UHGV virus genome: UHGV-0173695
DNA: 24,637 bases
DNA from: a virus
Strand: one strand, 5' to 3'
Both the position numbers and the translations under genes were made by a program. Of the stretch, positions 12,126 through 19,220 are shown one piece after another. The notes below the pieces were generated by a model. It was given only the letters and a program-made list of their open reading frames with translations. It was not told the DNA's origin and searched no databases. Within the stretch, counting starts at the first letter, position 1, and each line of letters starts with the position of its first letter.

Positions 12126-12152
12126 CGCGCTTCGCTTGTCTGCTGCTTCGCC

Positions 12153-12175
12153 GGGGCATAAAAAATTTATGCCCC
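12153..12175 (+). terminator. Hairpin downstream of Q (GGGGCATAAA-aaa-TTTATGCCCC); weak terminator candidate
   Basis: Perfect 10-bp inverted repeat 28 bp after the Q stop; no clear T-tract follows, so its function as an intrinsic terminator is uncertain. Confidence 0.35.
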
Positions 12176-12549
12176 GACTCTCCAGCTCCTGTATCAATCA
12201 GATAATTTCACGACGCCTTCCAGTTTATCGCCACCATCGACGGTCAGACTCTTACGCAATCCTACCGCGTTGACTGTATGTTCTCGCCGCCTCAGTGCGA
12301 TTTTGACGGCCTTACCTTTCCCCCCATCAAATCAAAAGCCCTCACATCTTTTTCACGCTCAGCGTGAGAAATATGGCCATTCTGTTGTGTCGCTGCGACA
12401 TCGCTCAGGGAATGCTATTTACCCCCTGAAACGCGGGCTGTTCCCCCGTCACCTGCGCGCAGAAAAAACGCGTTTTTTTGTGCACGCACGGATCCTTGAC
12501 GGATCCAGCCGCCACGCGGGCCGGAAGGGCAAAAAGTCGTTCAAAAAAA

Positions 12550-12872: not shown

Positions 12873-13160
12873 TCAGCGTGGATAAATTAACTTGAATTTG
12901 AGGAAGTTTTGTTTAATCCAGTCTTTAACATTTTCCCTTCCCTGAATACCTGATGGTAAGTGTTCGTGAATCATCCATTCGACAATGAGTTTCTCTTTCA
13001 GGGAGTATGCCTTAAAGGAATTAAGCATATTTAGTACTTCATAACCCTCTTTGCGGCTAAACCGATGGCGGTCAGCAGCGGTTTTCGTGGGATCATCTCC
13101 TGGCAAAGCAGTCCAACTGTAATCGTCATAAAATAAATCGCTTCTTTTAATATCGGTCAT
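12873..13160 (-). CDS. Hypothetical protein, 95 aa, AT-rich; cargo gene at the tin/old position
   Basis: Complete ORF; weak Shine-Dalgarno (AAGGA) upstream; a stem-loop (CCACCTC...GAGGTGG) lies in the 66-bp gap from the upstream gene; no family recognised. Confidence 0.45.
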   Translation of the reverse strand: MTDIKRSDLFYDDYSWTALPGDDPTKTAADRHRFSRKEGYEVLNMLNSFKAYSLKEKLIVEWMIHEHLPSGIQGRENVKDWIKQNFLKFKLIYPR

Positions 13161-13226
13161 TTGATTATCCTTTTCAGAAGAACCACCTCTCCAACTATTG
13201 TTGAGGTGGTGAAAAAGCAGAAATCG

Positions 13227-13505
13227 TTATGCAGCTTTGAGCAGTGCGCTGCTCATTGCATAGTCGTACCCAAGCATGTATGCCTCAAAGGCGTCTTTAT
13301 GTCTGACTGTGCCAGCCTGGCTATATGGAATATTTGCCAGGAAGGAATCATCTTTAGCTTTAGGAATACCGATCATTGCGTGAAGTACACCAAGCTCGTA
13401 TGCGCAGGCAGCGCAGCGGTGGCGGCCTGTCTGTCCCTGGTTATCGGGAAGGTGTGAGTATTGGGGGTTGTATCGGTGGGAGTTTTTACAAATCTTTATA
13501 CCCAT
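13227..13505 (-). CDS. Hypothetical protein, 92 aa; cargo gene at the tin/old position
   Basis: Complete ORF with GAGGT about 9 nt upstream of the ATG; no family recognised; the overlapping plus-strand ORFs look less protein-like. Confidence 0.45.
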   Translation of the reverse strand: MGIKICKNSHRYNPQYSHLPDNQGQTGRHRCAACAYELGVLHAMIGIPKAKDDSFLANIPYSQAGTVRHKDAFEAYMLGYDYAMSSALLKAA

Positions 13506-13611
13506 ATTTGATTTACCTCAATAAAATGAGGTGTTCACCTTTACATGGGCACACGCAGAAAATACGATTCCGGCGAGCTCAAGAGGTAGATGACACCTCG
13601 ATTTCTTTGGC

Positions 13612-13642
13612 GCCCCAATAGTTACCGCTATTGGGGCGTTTT
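13612..13642 (+). terminator. Rho-independent terminator-like hairpin (plus strand)
   Basis: Perfect 10-bp stem GCCCCAATAG / CTATTGGGGC with loop ttaccg, followed by GTTTT. Confidence 0.5.
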
Positions 13643-13784
13643 CCTATGCATGACACACAAACAAAGTGGTCATATCGTGATCGATCCTACAAAATCCCAT
13701 ACAACTGTCAAGGGTATTGATCGTTTTAATCGATAGATAAATCAATATCTATCTGTTTAACAGATCGATTATTAGGGTAAACAT

Positions 13785-13807
13785 GAAAAAACACCCGTGA
13801 AGGGTGT
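13785..13807 (-). terminator. Rho-independent terminator downstream of the parR-like gene (minus strand)
   Basis: Minus-strand hairpin ACACCC-ttca-CGGGTGT followed by a T-run (plus strand AAAAAACACCCGTGAAGGGTGT), 8 bp after the ParR stop. Confidence 0.55.
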
Positions 13808-13814
13808 TTGTAGG

Positions 13815-14129
13815 TTATTCTGGGAAAAACTCCTGAATGTTCCTTTTTAACTGGCTCTTACTGTGACTGTTTTCTGTTGCAGATGTGCCAGTATGCTTGT
13901 TTCGGATGTTATTTCTTGGTGGTATTGCTTCCTCTTCCTGCCATTCAGCCAGCCAGTAAGCAAAGGCGGGATCGCTTTTAATAAGCGCCAGTCCAGCCAG
14001 AAATGCCGCGCGTTGCGCGCGGCTGCGTTCGGAGGCTGGCAGGCTGTCGAGATAATTACACGCTTCTCGTTCACTCTTGACGGCTGCTGGCTTCAGATAG
14101 AAACTTATCCGTCTGGTTGGAGTCGTCAT
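13815..14129 (-). CDS. parR: ParR-like centromere-binding protein (ribbon-helix-helix, type II partition)
   Basis: Internal start MTTPTRRISFYLKP...NYLDSLPASERSRAQRAAFLAGLALIKSDP closely resembles plasmid R1 ParR as I recall it; AGGAG Shine-Dalgarno 7 nt upstream; start 5 bp after the ParM stop. Track ORF 13815..14264 has an N-terminal extension overlapping parM. Confidence 0.75.
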   Translation of the reverse strand: MTTPTRRISFYLKPAAVKSEREACNYLDSLPASERSRAQRAAFLAGLALIKSDPAFAYWLAEWQEEEAIPPRNNIRNKHTGTSATENSHSKSQLKRNIQEFFPE

Positions 14130-14133
14130 TGGT

Positions 14134-15093
14134 TTACTCCTTGTCCATTGCGTACAGCCCATTAACCAGAGCAAACTGTGGCACCCCGTCCGCGATGAAA
14201 GTCGCATTAACTCCGCAGGCTTCGCGGATAGCGGGTGCCACAATCTCCGCCCCGCCACCGACAACCATCACCCGCCCGTAACCCGAAAACCCCGCCAGCG
14301 CGCGGATCACTCGTTGTTTCAGTGTTTCTTCCTTTTCACGAATAACCGCCATCAGGCTGGCGTAATGCGCGTCATTGTGGATGTGCTGGCGCAACCAGGC
14401 TTCATCATGGCGATGTTCGATAATGGTATTGGCGATGTGGTGACTGGTGCGCATACCGTTAGTGGCCATCACCGACAGTACGGCATCGGCCATCAGAGAA
14501 ACGCCTACGTGTGGATCGCAAAACACCTGGCTGATACCTGCCAGTTGCCCCTGAACCTTTGCCACATCCAGCGTGGTTCCGCCCAAATCCACAATCAGCA
14601 GGGATTCAAACGGACTCATGTCAGCCAGTGCCTTAAAGCCAGCCGGAATGGATTCAGGCATAACCCGCACGTTACGGATAGTGAATGCTTCGCCGTTCTG
14701 GTACTCCACCGGGCGCATAACGTTCGCTTTTTTGCGGTTGATGTTGGCCATGTCCGGCTGTGCGTTTGTGTCGAAATATTCGCTCAGTGGCAGGGTGACA
14801 ACCACATCCACTTCCTGTGGTGTGATGCCTGATTTGACCAGCGCGTGATGAATGGCAATGACATTCACATCGCTGTACTGGTATTGCGTGTCGGTCGTCT
14901 GGACAAAGCGATCGCTGACCGGATCAAAACCATAGCGCACGCCATCAAGCATGTAGTTCGCGGGCTGCGTGCCACCGAACGGCGCAGACCATTCCGACTT
15001 GAAGCTGTTTGGGCTGATGGCGTTGCGGCGTTCGCCGTTCTCAGTCCATGCCAGCTTGATGTTGGTGGAGCCGTCATCGATACAAATTTTCAT
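14134..15093 (-). CDS. parM: ParM/StbA-family actin-like ATPase (type II partition motor)
   Basis: 319 aa; N-terminus MKICIDDGSTNIKLAW (R1 ParM begins MLVFIDDGSTNIKLQW as I recall); further matches ISPNSFK, YSDVNVIAIHHAL, DLGGTTLD, VMVVGGGAE. Confidence 0.9.
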   Translation of the reverse strand: MKICIDDGSTNIKLAWTENGERRNAISPNSFKSEWSAPFGGTQPANYMLDGVRYGFDPVSDRFVQTTDTQYQYSDVNVIAIHHALVKSGITPQEVDVVVTLPLSEYFDTNAQPDMANINRKKANVMRPVEYQNGEAFTIRNVRVMPESIPAGFKALADMSPFESLLIVDLGGTTLDVAKVQGQLAGISQVFCDPHVGVSLMADAVLSVMATNGMRTSHHIANTIIEHRHDEAWLRQHIHNDAHYASLMAVIREKEETLKQRVIRALAGFSGYGRVMVVGGGAEIVAPAIREACGVNATFIADGVPQFALVNGLYAMDKE

Positions 15094-15120: not shown

Positions 15121-15240
15121 ATCGTTTACGGGATTCTGAAATCCCGTTTTTGCCTGTTTTATGCGCGCTTCATATATCGCGGCGCGTTTTTTGCTCATTT
15201 ACGGGATTTGTGAATCCCGTTTCTGTCTGTTTTTTGTTTC
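15121..15240. repeat. parC-like region: two imperfect direct repeats of about 36 bp, each with the palindrome ACGGGATT-N4-AATCCCGT, upstream of parM
   Basis: Palindromes at 15128-15147 and 15201-15220, 73 bp apart, each followed by a T-rich tail (TTTTTGCCTGTTTT / TTTCTGTCTGTTTT). The first lies between the A stop and the parM start; the second lies within the last codons of A. Confidence 0.5.
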
Positions 15241-17992
15241 CACTGGTCAGGCCACCCCGCAGCAGGTCTGCTTTGCGGCGGGCGCGTTCAGTGGTTTCAC
15301 TGATTCTCTGTGCGTGCTCTGCGTCGCGGATGGCGCGCAGCATGTCAGAAAGCACGGTAACGGGTGTTTTCATGGTGTTCTGGTCTTGCTGAAGTGTGGA
15401 TGCCAGGCGTGCGGCGGCTTCGGGGTCTGATGTCCCCAGCTGTTCCAGATAGCTGGCGACCGGGTTATGGCGGATCTCCGTACTGCTTACGCCGTGGTTA
15501 CGGCTCAGGCGCTGCCAGAGCTGCGTGATCCGGCTGTCCGGTCGGGTATCCGGTTTGCGTACAATTTCAAATCCCTGCGGTGCAATGTTGCTGCCGTCAA
15601 CGTACAGACTGCCGCCCCGTAACAGGTGCTGCATCTGCTGTTCACCGATATGCAGGCCGAGAGATTCAGCAGACTCCCGCCATTCTTTAGCGAGTAGTTC
15701 GTGGTTATCAGGCAAAGGCCGCTGCTGTTTGCGGCTCTGTGTCCAGCTCTGCATTTCATCACGGCTGTTTTTTGCCTGTTTGTCACGAAGCGAACGCATC
15801 AGCGCCCGGCGTTCGTGCCGTTTCAGTGAGCGCATCCATTCGTTCACTTCAACGCCGTCAGGGAGCTGCGGCCACGGTGCTGGCCGTTCTTCCGGCTGTT
15901 CTGTCCCGTTGTTGTCCGTTTCCTGTACACGGGGACAGTTATTGCCACGAGTCCAAGGGGCGGCAGGGCCGCCCTGAAGGTCAAAACCATTTTCGTGGGC
16001 GTTGTCTTCTGGTTCTGGTTTACGTCTTACCAACTTCCAGTTATCCGGATGCGTGCACACACGGGAGGATTCCCCGATGAGTGGTGACCAGATCCCGTAA
16101 ATCTGTACGCTCTGTTCGCCGTAATCGTTCAGCTCATCTGCGAGGTCGTAGGCGGTGCGAATCAGGTAGTCCTTGCGTGGAACAAGCACGCCACCCTGTT
16201 TTTCAATGTAGGTGGCAAAACACCCGGCATCGGCGGCAGCGAGTACCGCATCCATTGCATCATCTTTCAGCCGTTGCGGGCCTTCCGGATTGCGTGCCAT
16301 CTGGCTGGCAAGGCGGCGCAGTTCACGCCACACCTGACGGGAGGGGATGCCAAAGAACTGGAACTGACGGACCCGGTGAAGGCGCGCCCAGCCGATGGCG
16401 CGCTCCACGCTCTCGGCCATTGATTTTCCGGTTTCGTGGTCAACGCGTGGCTTGCCCGTTTTCGGGTCGATGCCATCCACGGCGCGGCTGTCCAGGTTCT
16501 TTCCGATGTAGGTAGCGATGTAGCTGGTTGGTGTGCCTTTTGAGCCGTCGACATACTCCGCCTTAAAACGCGGAGTTATGTCATCGCCCAGCTCGTGGCG
16601 GTCCTCCTGAATGGCAATATCGCAGACGTGGGACACGATGGTTTCAATCTCGTCCGGATGTGCAAAGACCATCATATGCCAGTGCACAGTGCCGTCATGG
16701 TGAGGCTCCACCGTGCGGATGCCATACCAGCGCAGGCCGTCGCGGTTCAGTTTTTTGCGGACCGCCGCAAAAAACGTGTTAACCAGGTAATCGCTGGAGT
16801 CGCGCATGGTGGCCCCGTTCCATTTGGGGTTCGGATGACCGTTCTCCGTTGTTGCGTGGTATTTTGACGGGCAGGTGACGGTCAGAAACACCGCTCTGTC
16901 GCCACGGGCTTCGGCCAGAAGTTCCAGTCCCTTCATGGTGGCCATCATTTCTGCCTTACGGTGAACCGGGTTACTTACTCCCGCGTAATACACCGTCTCG
17001 AGATCAATCGTGAACCCGTCTTCATTTTCCAGCGTGAAACTTTTCAGGAAATCGCGTGTTTTCTCGCGCTGTGCGCGAAACTCGCTTAACGCGTCCTGGC
17101 TCAGATAGGGCGATGTTTTTCTGGAAACCAGACAGGCGGCGCGGAGTTGTTCTTCCCGCCACTCGCAACGTAACAGCCACAGTTTGCGTTTCCACCATTC
17201 CGCACAGGTCAGGCGAAGGATTGCGCCCGGCAGCAGCTCCGTGTCTGGTTCGTTCCTCCGGTCTTTGTCTGTTGTCAGTGCGTCATAATGTGGAGGCATG
17301 GCGTGCAGGTGTAACGCCATGCGGGCCAGCATCTGATACGCCTTCAGCGTTACATCCATGGTCAGCTCGCCATCGGTCGCGCCAAAGCCATCGCAGAGTT
17401 TTTCGAAGGTGCTGCTGAACATCGCCGCCGTCATGGTGGCCAGCGTCTGTATCTGGTGTTTGTTGAGCTGCGGCAGGTAAAGCAAATCGTCCAGGCGTTC
17501 GCGTCCGGCAAGGGAGCGATAACCCGGTGTCAGCCAGCGGTGATCGGTGCGGTCCAGACGTTCGAATATTTTGCGCAGGGTTCCGCGTGCATAGCGTTCC
17601 GCCTGCCAGCTCTTTTTGCCTTTCCGGCGATCGGCTTCCTGTTTTTTGCGCAGGAAGGAGAGGTGGCGAATAAGCGGATCGCGCAGATAGGACGGCAGCA
17701 GGCGCAGCGAGGCCATGGCTTCATCCACTGCGCCGCGTGCCTGTTTTCTGGCGTCTCCTGCCAGTGTGATGGTTTTGTCCTGTTTTTCCTGTGCGTCCAG
17801 GCTTTTATTAATCAGGTTGCCCAGCGGCGTGGCGGAGAACGCCGCATCAGCCATTTCCTTGCGGCGCTCGTTCTCTGCCCGGTAGGCATCCAGCCAGGAG
17901 GAAAGCGCGGATTCAGGAGCGGGGATCCCCGTTCCTTCACGCCCCACTGCGTGGCGCGGTTGTTGCCAGTCCCTGATGTACTCTGCCGTCAT
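15170..17992 (-). CDS. A: Replication initiation protein A (rolling-circle endonuclease), P2 gpA family
   Basis: 940 aa; contains HWHMMVFAH and TSYIATYIGKNLD (HUH-type and catalytic-Tyr motifs of gpA-like initiators). Longer than the roughly 761 aa recalled for P2 gpA. Confidence 0.9.
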   Translation of the reverse strand: MTAEYIRDWQQPRHAVGREGTGIPAPESALSSWLDAYRAENERRKEMADAAFSATPLGNLINKSLDAQEKQDKTITLAGDARKQARGAVDEAMASLRLLPSYLRDPLIRHLSFLRKKQEADRRKGKKSWQAERYARGTLRKIFERLDRTDHRWLTPGYRSLAGRERLDDLLYLPQLNKHQIQTLATMTAAMFSSTFEKLCDGFGATDGELTMDVTLKAYQMLARMALHLHAMPPHYDALTTDKDRRNEPDTELLPGAILRLTCAEWWKRKLWLLRCEWREEQLRAACLVSRKTSPYLSQDALSEFRAQREKTRDFLKSFTLENEDGFTIDLETVYYAGVSNPVHRKAEMMATMKGLELLAEARGDRAVFLTVTCPSKYHATTENGHPNPKWNGATMRDSSDYLVNTFFAAVRKKLNRDGLRWYGIRTVEPHHDGTVHWHMMVFAHPDEIETIVSHVCDIAIQEDRHELGDDITPRFKAEYVDGSKGTPTSYIATYIGKNLDSRAVDGIDPKTGKPRVDHETGKSMAESVERAIGWARLHRVRQFQFFGIPSRQVWRELRRLASQMARNPEGPQRLKDDAMDAVLAAADAGCFATYIEKQGGVLVPRKDYLIRTAYDLADELNDYGEQSVQIYGIWSPLIGESSRVCTHPDNWKLVRRKPEPEDNAHENGFDLQGGPAAPWTRGNNCPRVQETDNNGTEQPEERPAPWPQLPDGVEVNEWMRSLKRHERRALMRSLRDKQAKNSRDEMQSWTQSRKQQRPLPDNHELLAKEWRESAESLGLHIGEQQMQHLLRGGSLYVDGSNIAPQGFEIVRKPDTRPDSRITQLWQRLSRNHGVSSTEIRHNPVASYLEQLGTSDPEAAARLASTLQQDQNTMKTPVTVLSDMLRAIRDAEHAQRISETTERARRKADLLRGGLTSGNKKQTETGFTNPVNEQKTRRDI

Positions 17993-18900: not shown

Positions 18901-19079
18901 GGTGTGGCCTCTGTAGTTGCAAGTTTTGAAAACTCACCATCCAGAGGTGGAAAACTCGGGGTGGTGAGACGTACAGGGTTTCCACAACCGGCAACTACAG
19001 AACCCGGCCCGACCGAAGTCGGCCCCGTACGCCCCACCATAATTCGTGTGCGAAAAAGACGTGGCGATACAGTACACAC

Positions 19080-19100
19080 AAAAAAACCGCTGGCGCGGTT
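19080..19100 (-). terminator. Weak terminator-like hairpin on the minus strand (AACCGC-gcca-GCGGTT followed by a T-run)
   Basis: Plus strand AAAAAAACCGCTGGCGCGGTT; short stem, so low confidence. Confidence 0.3.
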
Positions 19101-19220
19101 GTGCGCTGTAGTTGTCAGCGGGGTGGAAATCCCGGCACCCGTTTTATGAGATGCAGCGGAAATGTAACCTGACTGATTGCGGCATGGCAAGCAGTTTTTT
19201 TGTGTGTGCATGATGATTAC

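Follow-up and report, generated by a model that had tools for sequence, protein, structure and literature searches.

A mobile cargo gene of P2-like and other phages is probably opposed by a structured antisense RNA of about 70 nt

A short interval upstream of a small cargo gene in a P2-like prophage probably encodes a cis-antisense RNA of about 70 nt, which would belong to a mobile cargo cassette and control the 92-aa gene of that cassette. The window, the whole 24,637-nt stretch of DNA analysed here, is a P2-like prophage of the Xuanwuvirus/P88-like kind. An earlier note on this DNA had left two readings of the interval side by side, a small RNA of roughly 70 nt antisense to the leader of the 92-aa gene and a device that blocks convergent transcription. 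Comparison with relatives favours the former over the latter: the promoter, its spacing, two hairpins and their position are kept in three unrelated phage backbones. The features of the locus are as follows.

13227–13505, minus strand: 92-aa target gene (phrog_3941), with C6, H10, H29, C31, C34 and SQAGxVRHK conserved
13506–13677, minus strand: predicted 172-nt 5′ leader of the 92-aa mRNA, placed from the promoter position
13515–13532, minus strand: hairpin sequestering the Shine–Dalgarno sequence, ACCTCA / ttttat / TGAGGT, from the leader fold
13540–13545, plus strand: −35 hexamer TTTACA of the antisense-RNA promoter
13563–13568, plus strand: −10 hexamer TACGAT, 17 bp past the −35
13575–13644, plus strand: predicted antisense small RNA of ~68–71 nt, from covariance model R1 and folding
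13583–13599, plus strand: hairpin 1, GAGGT / agatgac / ACCTC, from RNAfold
13600–13608, plus strand: U-rich linker GATTTCTTT between the hairpins
13609–13642, plus strand: hairpin 2 and T run, presumed intrinsic terminator, with TTTT at 13639–13642
13684–13711, minus strand: predicted sense promoter of the 92-aa gene, TTGACA, 16 bp, TAGGAT (10/12)

The two hexamers pointed out in the earlier note, with their 17-bp spacing, were recovered by a promoter scan with a score of 9/12. By itself this match is not above chance, as the window has 4 promoter-like sites against 3.0 ± 1.9 in shuffles; its significance comes from conservation in relatives only, not from the window alone. Among 160 related loci collected, TTTACA-N17-TAnnnT lies opposite the gene in every Enterobacterales copy with at least 57% protein identity, the sole exception being one truncated copy, and Gilliamella copies carry TTTACT-17-TAGAAT. 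The distance from the antisense −35 to the start codon is about 34–47 nt across ~50 distinct upstream regions from Enterobacterales and Gilliamella. When 31 distinct promoter regions were anchored on the −35, every position of TTTAC and −10 positions T1, A2 and T6 carried 2.0 bits, the sixth −35 base was A (T in Gilliamella) and the spacing was constant at 17 bp. In the same regions, −10 positions 3–5 and nearly all of the spacer carried at most 1.1 bits and the discriminator at most 0.7 bits, with one spacer column, 3 nt before the −10, likewise invariant. As judged from these alignments, the pattern of invariance is that expected of sigma-70 contacts and not that of an RNA helix; the spacing falls within the 16–18 bp of sigma-70 promoters, and the bases that polymerase contacts are kept in relatives.

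The 5′ end of the predicted RNA was placed 7 nt past the −10 and its 3′ end within the T run. RNAfold gives two hairpins for 13575–13644, with a minimum free energy (MFE) of −29.4 kcal/mol (z = −4.6), and the T-rich linker between them is found in all clades. Hairpin 2 is a GC-rich stem-loop of the intrinsic-terminator type. Its stem is slightly better than the perfect 10 bp first described, with a core of 11 perfect Watson–Crick pairs (13611–13621/13628–13638, loop TTACCG), extended by RNAfold to 14 pairs when wobbles are included (13609–13622/13627–13640, ΔG −20 to −23 kcal/mol). Calling this terminator strong was an overstatement, as only four T precede CC. The stem is followed by TTTTCC in the window and by TTCCCTTAT in most relatives, where two or three U stand after the hairpin and then CCC, a short U run compared with the typical five or more. 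Termination efficiency at hairpin 2 is uncertain because of this short run and because hairpin 2 is absent from the terminator scan's list for the window. The annotated terminator of the P22 sar RNA is a very similar hairpin whose U tail is poorer still, which shows that termination is possible at structures of this kind, and by analogy with sar we infer that the RNA is made and ends at hairpin 2.

The interval holds no plausible plus-strand protein gene, a point on which the earlier note was right in substance. The only ATG open reading frame starting in it (13590–13736, 48 aa) runs through the terminator and is not conserved, and no ATG occurs in the representative RNAs of relatives; a peptide encoded by the plus-strand RNA was therefore rejected.

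Across copies, the predicted two-hairpin RNA that follows the promoter is 70–85 nt long. A simple search showed that almost every clade has a hairpin 33–45 nt past the inferred RNA start, with stems that differ widely in sequence, and among the aligned phage relatives the hairpin at the matching place differs in sequence with its pairing still perfect. An alignment made with MAFFT alone and passed to RNAalifold misaligned the helices and gave a weak consensus (−5.5 kcal/mol); it was replaced by a covariance-model alignment. The model, R1, rests on 11 sequences from a single other clade, with window-type sequences left out. It finds the window copy at full length (13571–13650, plus strand, 33.2 bits, E about 7e-6) as its sole match in the window, and every one of its 51 matches with E < 0.01 in the 540 kb searched falls immediately 5′ of the gene and on the strand opposite to it. 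In the R1 alignment, which is fitted to the model and places helix 1 of the window copy badly, 96.3% of cells are paired, compared with 70% in shuffles, and 14 of the 18 pairs show double-sided changes. By helix, these changes affect 4 of 6 pairs in helix 1, whose equivalents in relatives include AAAACA/TGTTTT and others, and 10 of 12 in hairpin 2. The covariation score is 0.651, against 0.195 for shuffled alignments and at most 0.138 with slid partners. For the window copy, RNAfold independently gives GAGGT/ACCTC as helix 1.

The hairpins are nearly strand-symmetric, and wobble pairs were therefore counted to assign the structure to a strand. Across eleven pair positions, in plus-strand orientation, G-U/U-G pairs fill 41 cells and A-C/C-A combinations 2; the structure is therefore kept on the plus strand, where selection is visible. 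A modest preference, weaker than the wobble count, was seen in folding energies, with the antisense strand more stable in 23 of 34 sequences and a mean difference of −2 kcal/mol. By covariation and by the wobble count, a structured RNA under selection thus lies opposite a predicted transcribed leader. Both RNAs of the pair are probably structured, as in other antisense pairs.

The conserved structure might instead serve the minus-strand leader, as a 5′ stem-loop, processing site or sensor, with the hexamers kept as part of that leader. We consider this unlikely. The leader does fold stably (−63.8 kcal/mol, z = −4.8), the complements of the hairpins also form on the mRNA, and in 11 of the 34 sequences it is the mRNA strand that folds more stably. 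TGTAAAG, the complement of the antisense −35, is invariant among the aligned upstream regions of phage relatives, and part of this conservation could serve the mRNA, because TGTAAAG pairs with the start-codon region in the mRNA folds of several clades. However, TTTAC-17-TAnnnT with a free spacer and discriminator follows polymerase contacts rather than a helix, and the plus-strand G-U pairs, which would be A-C mismatches in the mRNA, exceed the reverse by 41 to 2.

The gene opposite the antisense RNA encodes a protein with invariant residues C6, H10, H29, C31 and C34 and an invariant SQAGxVRHK motif. It has no match in Pfam, NCBIfam or PADLOC, and a profile search with it returned at least 1,479 protein clusters, none of them named. 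Its AlphaFold model is globular (pLDDT 92), with no fold match in the PDB, and the protein is hydrophilic (GRAVY −0.36; maximum Kyte–Doolittle value over 19 residues 1.08), with no membrane segment. The predicted sense promoter is convergent with the antisense promoter. Its counterpart in phage 520873 is TTGACA-16-TAAGAT, and cassettes L005 and L110 have TTGATC-16-TATAAT and TTGAGG-17-TATTAT, respectively, at equivalent distances; the predicted leaders are 170–180 nt long in three clades. Full complementarity between the small RNA and the leader covers about +34 to +103 (roughly +35 to +105), a stretch 70–138 nt upstream of the start codon, and leaves the ribosome site uncovered. That site has a lock of its own. 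The last 40 nt of the leader hold the Shine–Dalgarno hairpin, and in 38 distinct relatives the Shine–Dalgarno sequence is part of the 3′ arm of such a local hairpin, with differing sequences and a median probability of being unpaired of 0.34 for positions −14 to −6. The start codon is also paired in many clades. Cassettes L005, L006 and L110 have their own downstream terminator, and the window cassette has a weak hairpin after the 92-aa gene.

The surroundings of the locus in the window comprise the following genes and RNAs.

up to 12125, plus strand: terminase and portal genes
13815–14129, minus strand: parR-like gene
14134–15093, minus strand: parM
15170–17992, minus strand: replication gene A (Phage_GPA, 431 bits)
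18957–19044 and 19080–19154, minus strand: C4 and isrK-like RNAs (Rfam)

The antisense-RNA locus lies in the cargo region from parR to the portal gene, which is the cos-proximal gpA–gpQ hotspot, known in P2-like phages as a site of variable accessory and defence genes (PMC9122126). The cargo of the window consists of two small minus-strand genes, of 92 aa (13227–13505) and 95 aa (12873–13160). E. coli strains SW070912 and TUM9812 carry this prophage and share 95–98% identity with the window in this region. Cargo of this type is rare, with most of it present in 7 of 5,426 complete E. coli genomes; the L110-type cassette was found in none of the complete E. coli genomes, and the Salmonella-type cassette is known from one phage record only. 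The 95-aa gene, downstream of the 92-aa gene, belongs to phrog_33929 and has no other annotation; a hairpin with a weak T tail (13183–13209) separates the two. It was not found beside the 92-aa gene in other phages and is therefore probably an independent moron. Directly after parR stands a good minus-strand terminator (13789–13809, AAACACCC-ttcac-GGGTGTTT, then a T-rich tail), and the 92-aa gene is therefore probably a transcription unit apart from gpA–parM–parR.

Further elements were noticed in the same region. Between parR and the sense promoter, close to the latter, lies a cluster of palindromes (13715–13775) made up of TAGATA..TATCTA, CTGTTTAACAG and recurring (G)ATCGAT. Its conservation is 75% in phages 520873 and 503458, but the lambdoid and P22-like copies lack it; an operator or a parC-like centromere is a possible role for this cluster. 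Two more hairpins stand between the portal gene and the cargo (12150–12178, 12455–12480). One has an A/T loop and directly follows the stop codon of the portal gene; the other is a CGCG hairpin with seven T behind it. Both are probably part of the cos region. In the early region of the prophage, a C4 antisense RNA (80.5 bits) lies beside an isrK-like RNA (61.4 bits), both above Rfam gathering thresholds.

The 92-aa gene occurs on three kinds of phage backbone. In phage 520873 it occupies the same P2-like position, and the P2-like copies sit between parR and cos. A homologue lies downstream of cI in the P22-like Salmonella phage BIS08P22, and another lies between Q and the lysis genes of the lambdoid Providencia phage PSTCR7lys, in opposite orientation to both. 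The orientation of the cassette relative to its neighbours thus varies between backbones, which speaks against a function that depends on one specific neighbouring operon. The hosts of the combined RNA and gene are Enterobacterales and Gilliamella, and the covariance-model search found the RNA absent outside these groups. On this comparative evidence, sense promoter, leader, locked ribosome site, own terminator and antisense RNA together make up what is predicted to be a mobile one-gene cargo cassette, a moron.

A homologue in Serratia oryzae (locus L039), 46% identical, has TTTACA-18-TACAAT on the opposite strand at the same distance from the start codon, with a strong terminator ~100 nt further (a 13-bp stem, then TTTTTT), so that the module spans ~36–180 nt upstream of the gene. 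R1 does not match this arrangement, which is possibly a diverged version of the antisense one. A generic scan for antisense modules in 21 of the loci without restriction-modification neighbours returned only L039. Elsewhere, a viral contig (L167) carries an sRNA-Xcc1 match (RF02221, 59.9 bits, above the gathering score) at 2804–2893 on the minus strand, ~1.1 kb downstream of the gene and on the opposite strand.

The constant company of RNA and gene also bears on the idea that the RNA acts mainly in trans, in the manner of Hfq-dependent RNAs, with mRNAs of the host or of phages as its targets and only an incidental overlap with the leader. Its layout would suit such a role: the 5′ end is conserved and single-stranded (GAGCTCAAG / GAGATCTCAAG), and a U-rich linker joins a small hairpin to the terminator hairpin. 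The RNA also has a sub-threshold likeness to two-hairpin small-RNA models (NsiR1, 29.6 bits). Against this improbable reading, the RNA was never found apart from the gene, in 51 of 51 matches, and copies of the gene within restriction-modification operons lack it; its 3′ U run is also short for Hfq binding.

Mobility weighs in turn on the proposal that the hairpin is an insulator, halting stray plus-strand transcription, such as terminase–portal read-through across cos, before it enters parR–parM–gpA. The hairpin is indeed terminator-like in the plus-strand direction only, and no convincing terminator follows the portal gene. Yet it travels with the 92-aa gene into backbones with other neighbours and orientations, and it always stands a fixed 30–45 nt past the conserved promoter. 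Read-through from the portal gene would moreover first cross the 92-aa and 95-aa genes, and a dedicated insulator would be expected to have a stronger U tail, all of which leaves this explanation very improbable. A chance promoter-like match beside an ordinary hairpin is scarcely credible, for although such matches are no more frequent in the window than in shuffles, the arrangement recurs at ~50 distinct loci on three backbones, both helices covary and a model from an independent clade matches the window copy.

Under the preferred reading, that of a cis-antisense RNA, the transcript would begin with a short unpaired 5′ segment, continue through hairpin 1 and the U-rich linker, and close with the GC-rich hairpin 2 and its brief run of U. 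Its promoter would sit 35 nt ahead of the start codon, within the leader and facing the other way, and the RNA would end ~35 nt downstream of the mRNA start. The hairpin loops could make the first loop–loop contacts with the complementary hairpins of the leader, followed by a full duplex of ~70 bp; cutting of this duplex by RNase III would remove the 5′ structure of the leader and lower 92-aa expression. The convergent promoters are separated by 115 bp, and colliding polymerases or occlusion of one promoter by the other may add a transcriptional component. Because the RNA leaves the ribosome site uncovered, it would not block initiation directly; it would act on mRNA fate or on upstream access, atop the intrinsic translational lock. 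Most likely the RNA lowers expression of the 92-aa gene, a prediction from sequence that does not decide between repression and processing-dependent activation.

Distant relatives of the 92-aa protein are encoded within GATC restriction-modification (R-M) operons of the DpnII type (loci L018–L087 and L169–L172), with R-M genes within 3 kb at 50 of 70 such loci. A Dam-family methyltransferase is present at 44, a DpnII endonuclease at 32, a second methyltransferase at 33 and DUF6996/6997/7226 at 10; the typical order is dam, small gene, DpnII, M2, as exemplified by L036 (1908–4901) and L022 (2015–5082). The Dam-family methyltransferase of L169 scores 323 bits (TIGR00571) and the DpnII endonucleases score 353–377 bits (PF04556). 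No R-M genes lie beside the RNA-bearing genome loci, and the phage-borne copies, including that of the window, have no such neighbours. The location in or next to an R-M operon that is usual for R-M controller (C) proteins is thus found for the distant homologues only, not for the window copy, and the 92-aa protein is not a small Xre-type helix-turn-helix protein.

GATC itself is enriched 4.5-fold upstream of the gene in phage cassettes (12 versus 2.7 per kb, over 320 nt). It recurs at conserved places: the sense −35, the sense −10, the spacer of the antisense promoter and the first bases of the RNA (GAGATCTC, GTGATCAC). Across clades the sense promoter has a conserved GATC, and the window keeps the sites at 13679, 13683 and 13719, listed below; at the RNA start it has GAGCTC in place of GATC. 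A further GATC in the window lies at 13763–13766.

13679–13682 and 13683–13686, either strand: two adjacent GATC sites, the second overlapping the sense −10 (TAGGATC)
13719–13722, either strand: GATC directly upstream of the sense −35; nearly all clades have one at ~−215 relative to the start codon

By analogy, this clustering suggests a link to Dam methylation reminiscent of IS10. A tentative and rather speculative extension is that the cassette might be a methylation-gated switch, in which the Dam state of DNA that is entering or being replicated would decide which promoter wins and the 92-aa protein would act on GATC restriction or methylation of competing elements. The protein would then be an accessory, controller-like factor of DpnII-type systems, captured without the enzymes by phages of dam+ Gammaproteobacteria. 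Two convergent promoters studded with GATC, together with the antisense RNA, would set its expression, with Dam state acting much as it does on IS10 pIN/RNA-OUT. A protein acting on competing mobile elements would fit its place in the P2 defence hotspot.

The accessory genes in the gpA–gpQ hotspot of P2 are a known defence reservoir (PMC9122126), and little is known of their timing and silencing. Here one small gene travels through three kinds of phage with a regulatory package, namely convergent promoters, a structured antisense RNA, a locked ribosome site and clustered GATC. The locus offers databases a new, well-supported RNA family, and it provides a testable example of multilayer moron control. 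The association with DpnII/Dam systems is a first functional lead for an unannotated family of more than 1,400 clusters, whose fold, confidently predicted by modelling, appears unlike any solved structure.

No Rfam family (Rfam 15) matched 13150–13900 or the relatives' copies at gathering score, and the sole gathering-score matches in the window were C4 and isrK, 5 kb away. A permissive scan of 13150–13900 gave sub-threshold matches to NsiR1 (29.6 bits) and sar (23.5 bits). In the literature searched, no description of the RNA or of the 92-aa protein was found; STnc6030 of BTP1, a 786-nt antisense RNA, is unrelated (PMC7067206).

Identity with sar (RF00262) was rejected. The score of 23.5 bits compares with a gathering score of 43 and covers model positions 35–62 only, which is the hairpin; ten relatives gave no sar match at E ≤ 1, and R1 scored P22 sar at 16.9 bits, again on the hairpin only. 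The placement differs as well, as the target in the window is the phrog_3941 gene, with no arc or ant, and complementarity stops ~70 nt before the start codon. In P22 the annotated sar RNA (15021–15090) ends at AAGCCCTGACTG-TTACCG-CAGTTGGGGCTT plus CAACTTT. Like the window RNA, sar is a phage-borne antisense RNA of ~69 nt whose convergent promoter lies inside the 5′ part of the target unit, and it has a GC-rich terminal hairpin with a poor U tail. The hairpins themselves are similar (CGCCCCAATAG-TTACCG-CTATTGGGGCG in the window, GCCCTGACTG-TTACCG-CAGTTGGGGC in sar), whereas the 5′ halves and the target proteins are unrelated, the sar target being the antirepressor gene ant. Moreover, sar covers the ant ribosome site, whereas the window RNA pairs 70–138 nt upstream of the start codon. 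The P22 oop terminator (L168, 32273–32339, minus strand) scores 15.1 bits on R1, near the score of sar, and both the oop and sar terminators resemble hairpin 2 in having CTG-TTnCCG-CAG near the loop. Hairpins of this type seem to be a terminator common to phage antisense RNAs.

RNA-OUT of IS10 is a single long stem-loop that covers the ribosome site and start codon of its target. The RNA-OUT/RNA-IN pair resembles the window locus as an antisense RNA of ~70 nt directed against an mRNA 5′ end from a convergent promoter, and at the Dam-sensitive IS10 promoter pIN, as in the window (13683–13686, with TAGGAT), a GATC overlaps the sense −10. There is no sequence similarity between the two, and Dam sensitivity in the window is suggested by GATC clustering only.

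The toxins of tisB/istR-1 and zorO/orzO are short hydrophobic peptides, and their regulators IstR-1 and OrzO are only partly complementary to their targets. These systems share with the window a locked Shine–Dalgarno sequence and start codon and a regulator RNA that pairs with the upstream leader. They differ in that the window RNA is fully complementary and its target encodes a soluble 92-aa protein, predicted to bind zinc. The mRNA thus has the sequestered ribosome site of type I toxin–antitoxin systems, and in place of their short hydrophobic peptide it encodes a 92-aa globular protein.

FinP covers the ribosome site of traJ and needs the FinO chaperone. It has no sequence relation to the window RNA, and no FinO-like gene lies nearby in the window. 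The FinP/traJ pair of F-like plasmids is nonetheless alike in design, with an antisense RNA of ~79 nt, two stem-loops, short tails and a short spacer, directed against the 5′ UTR of its target. Absent from Rfam and from the papers searched, the RNA predicted here is, by the sequence comparisons, very probably a real new family of a familiar kind of regulator.
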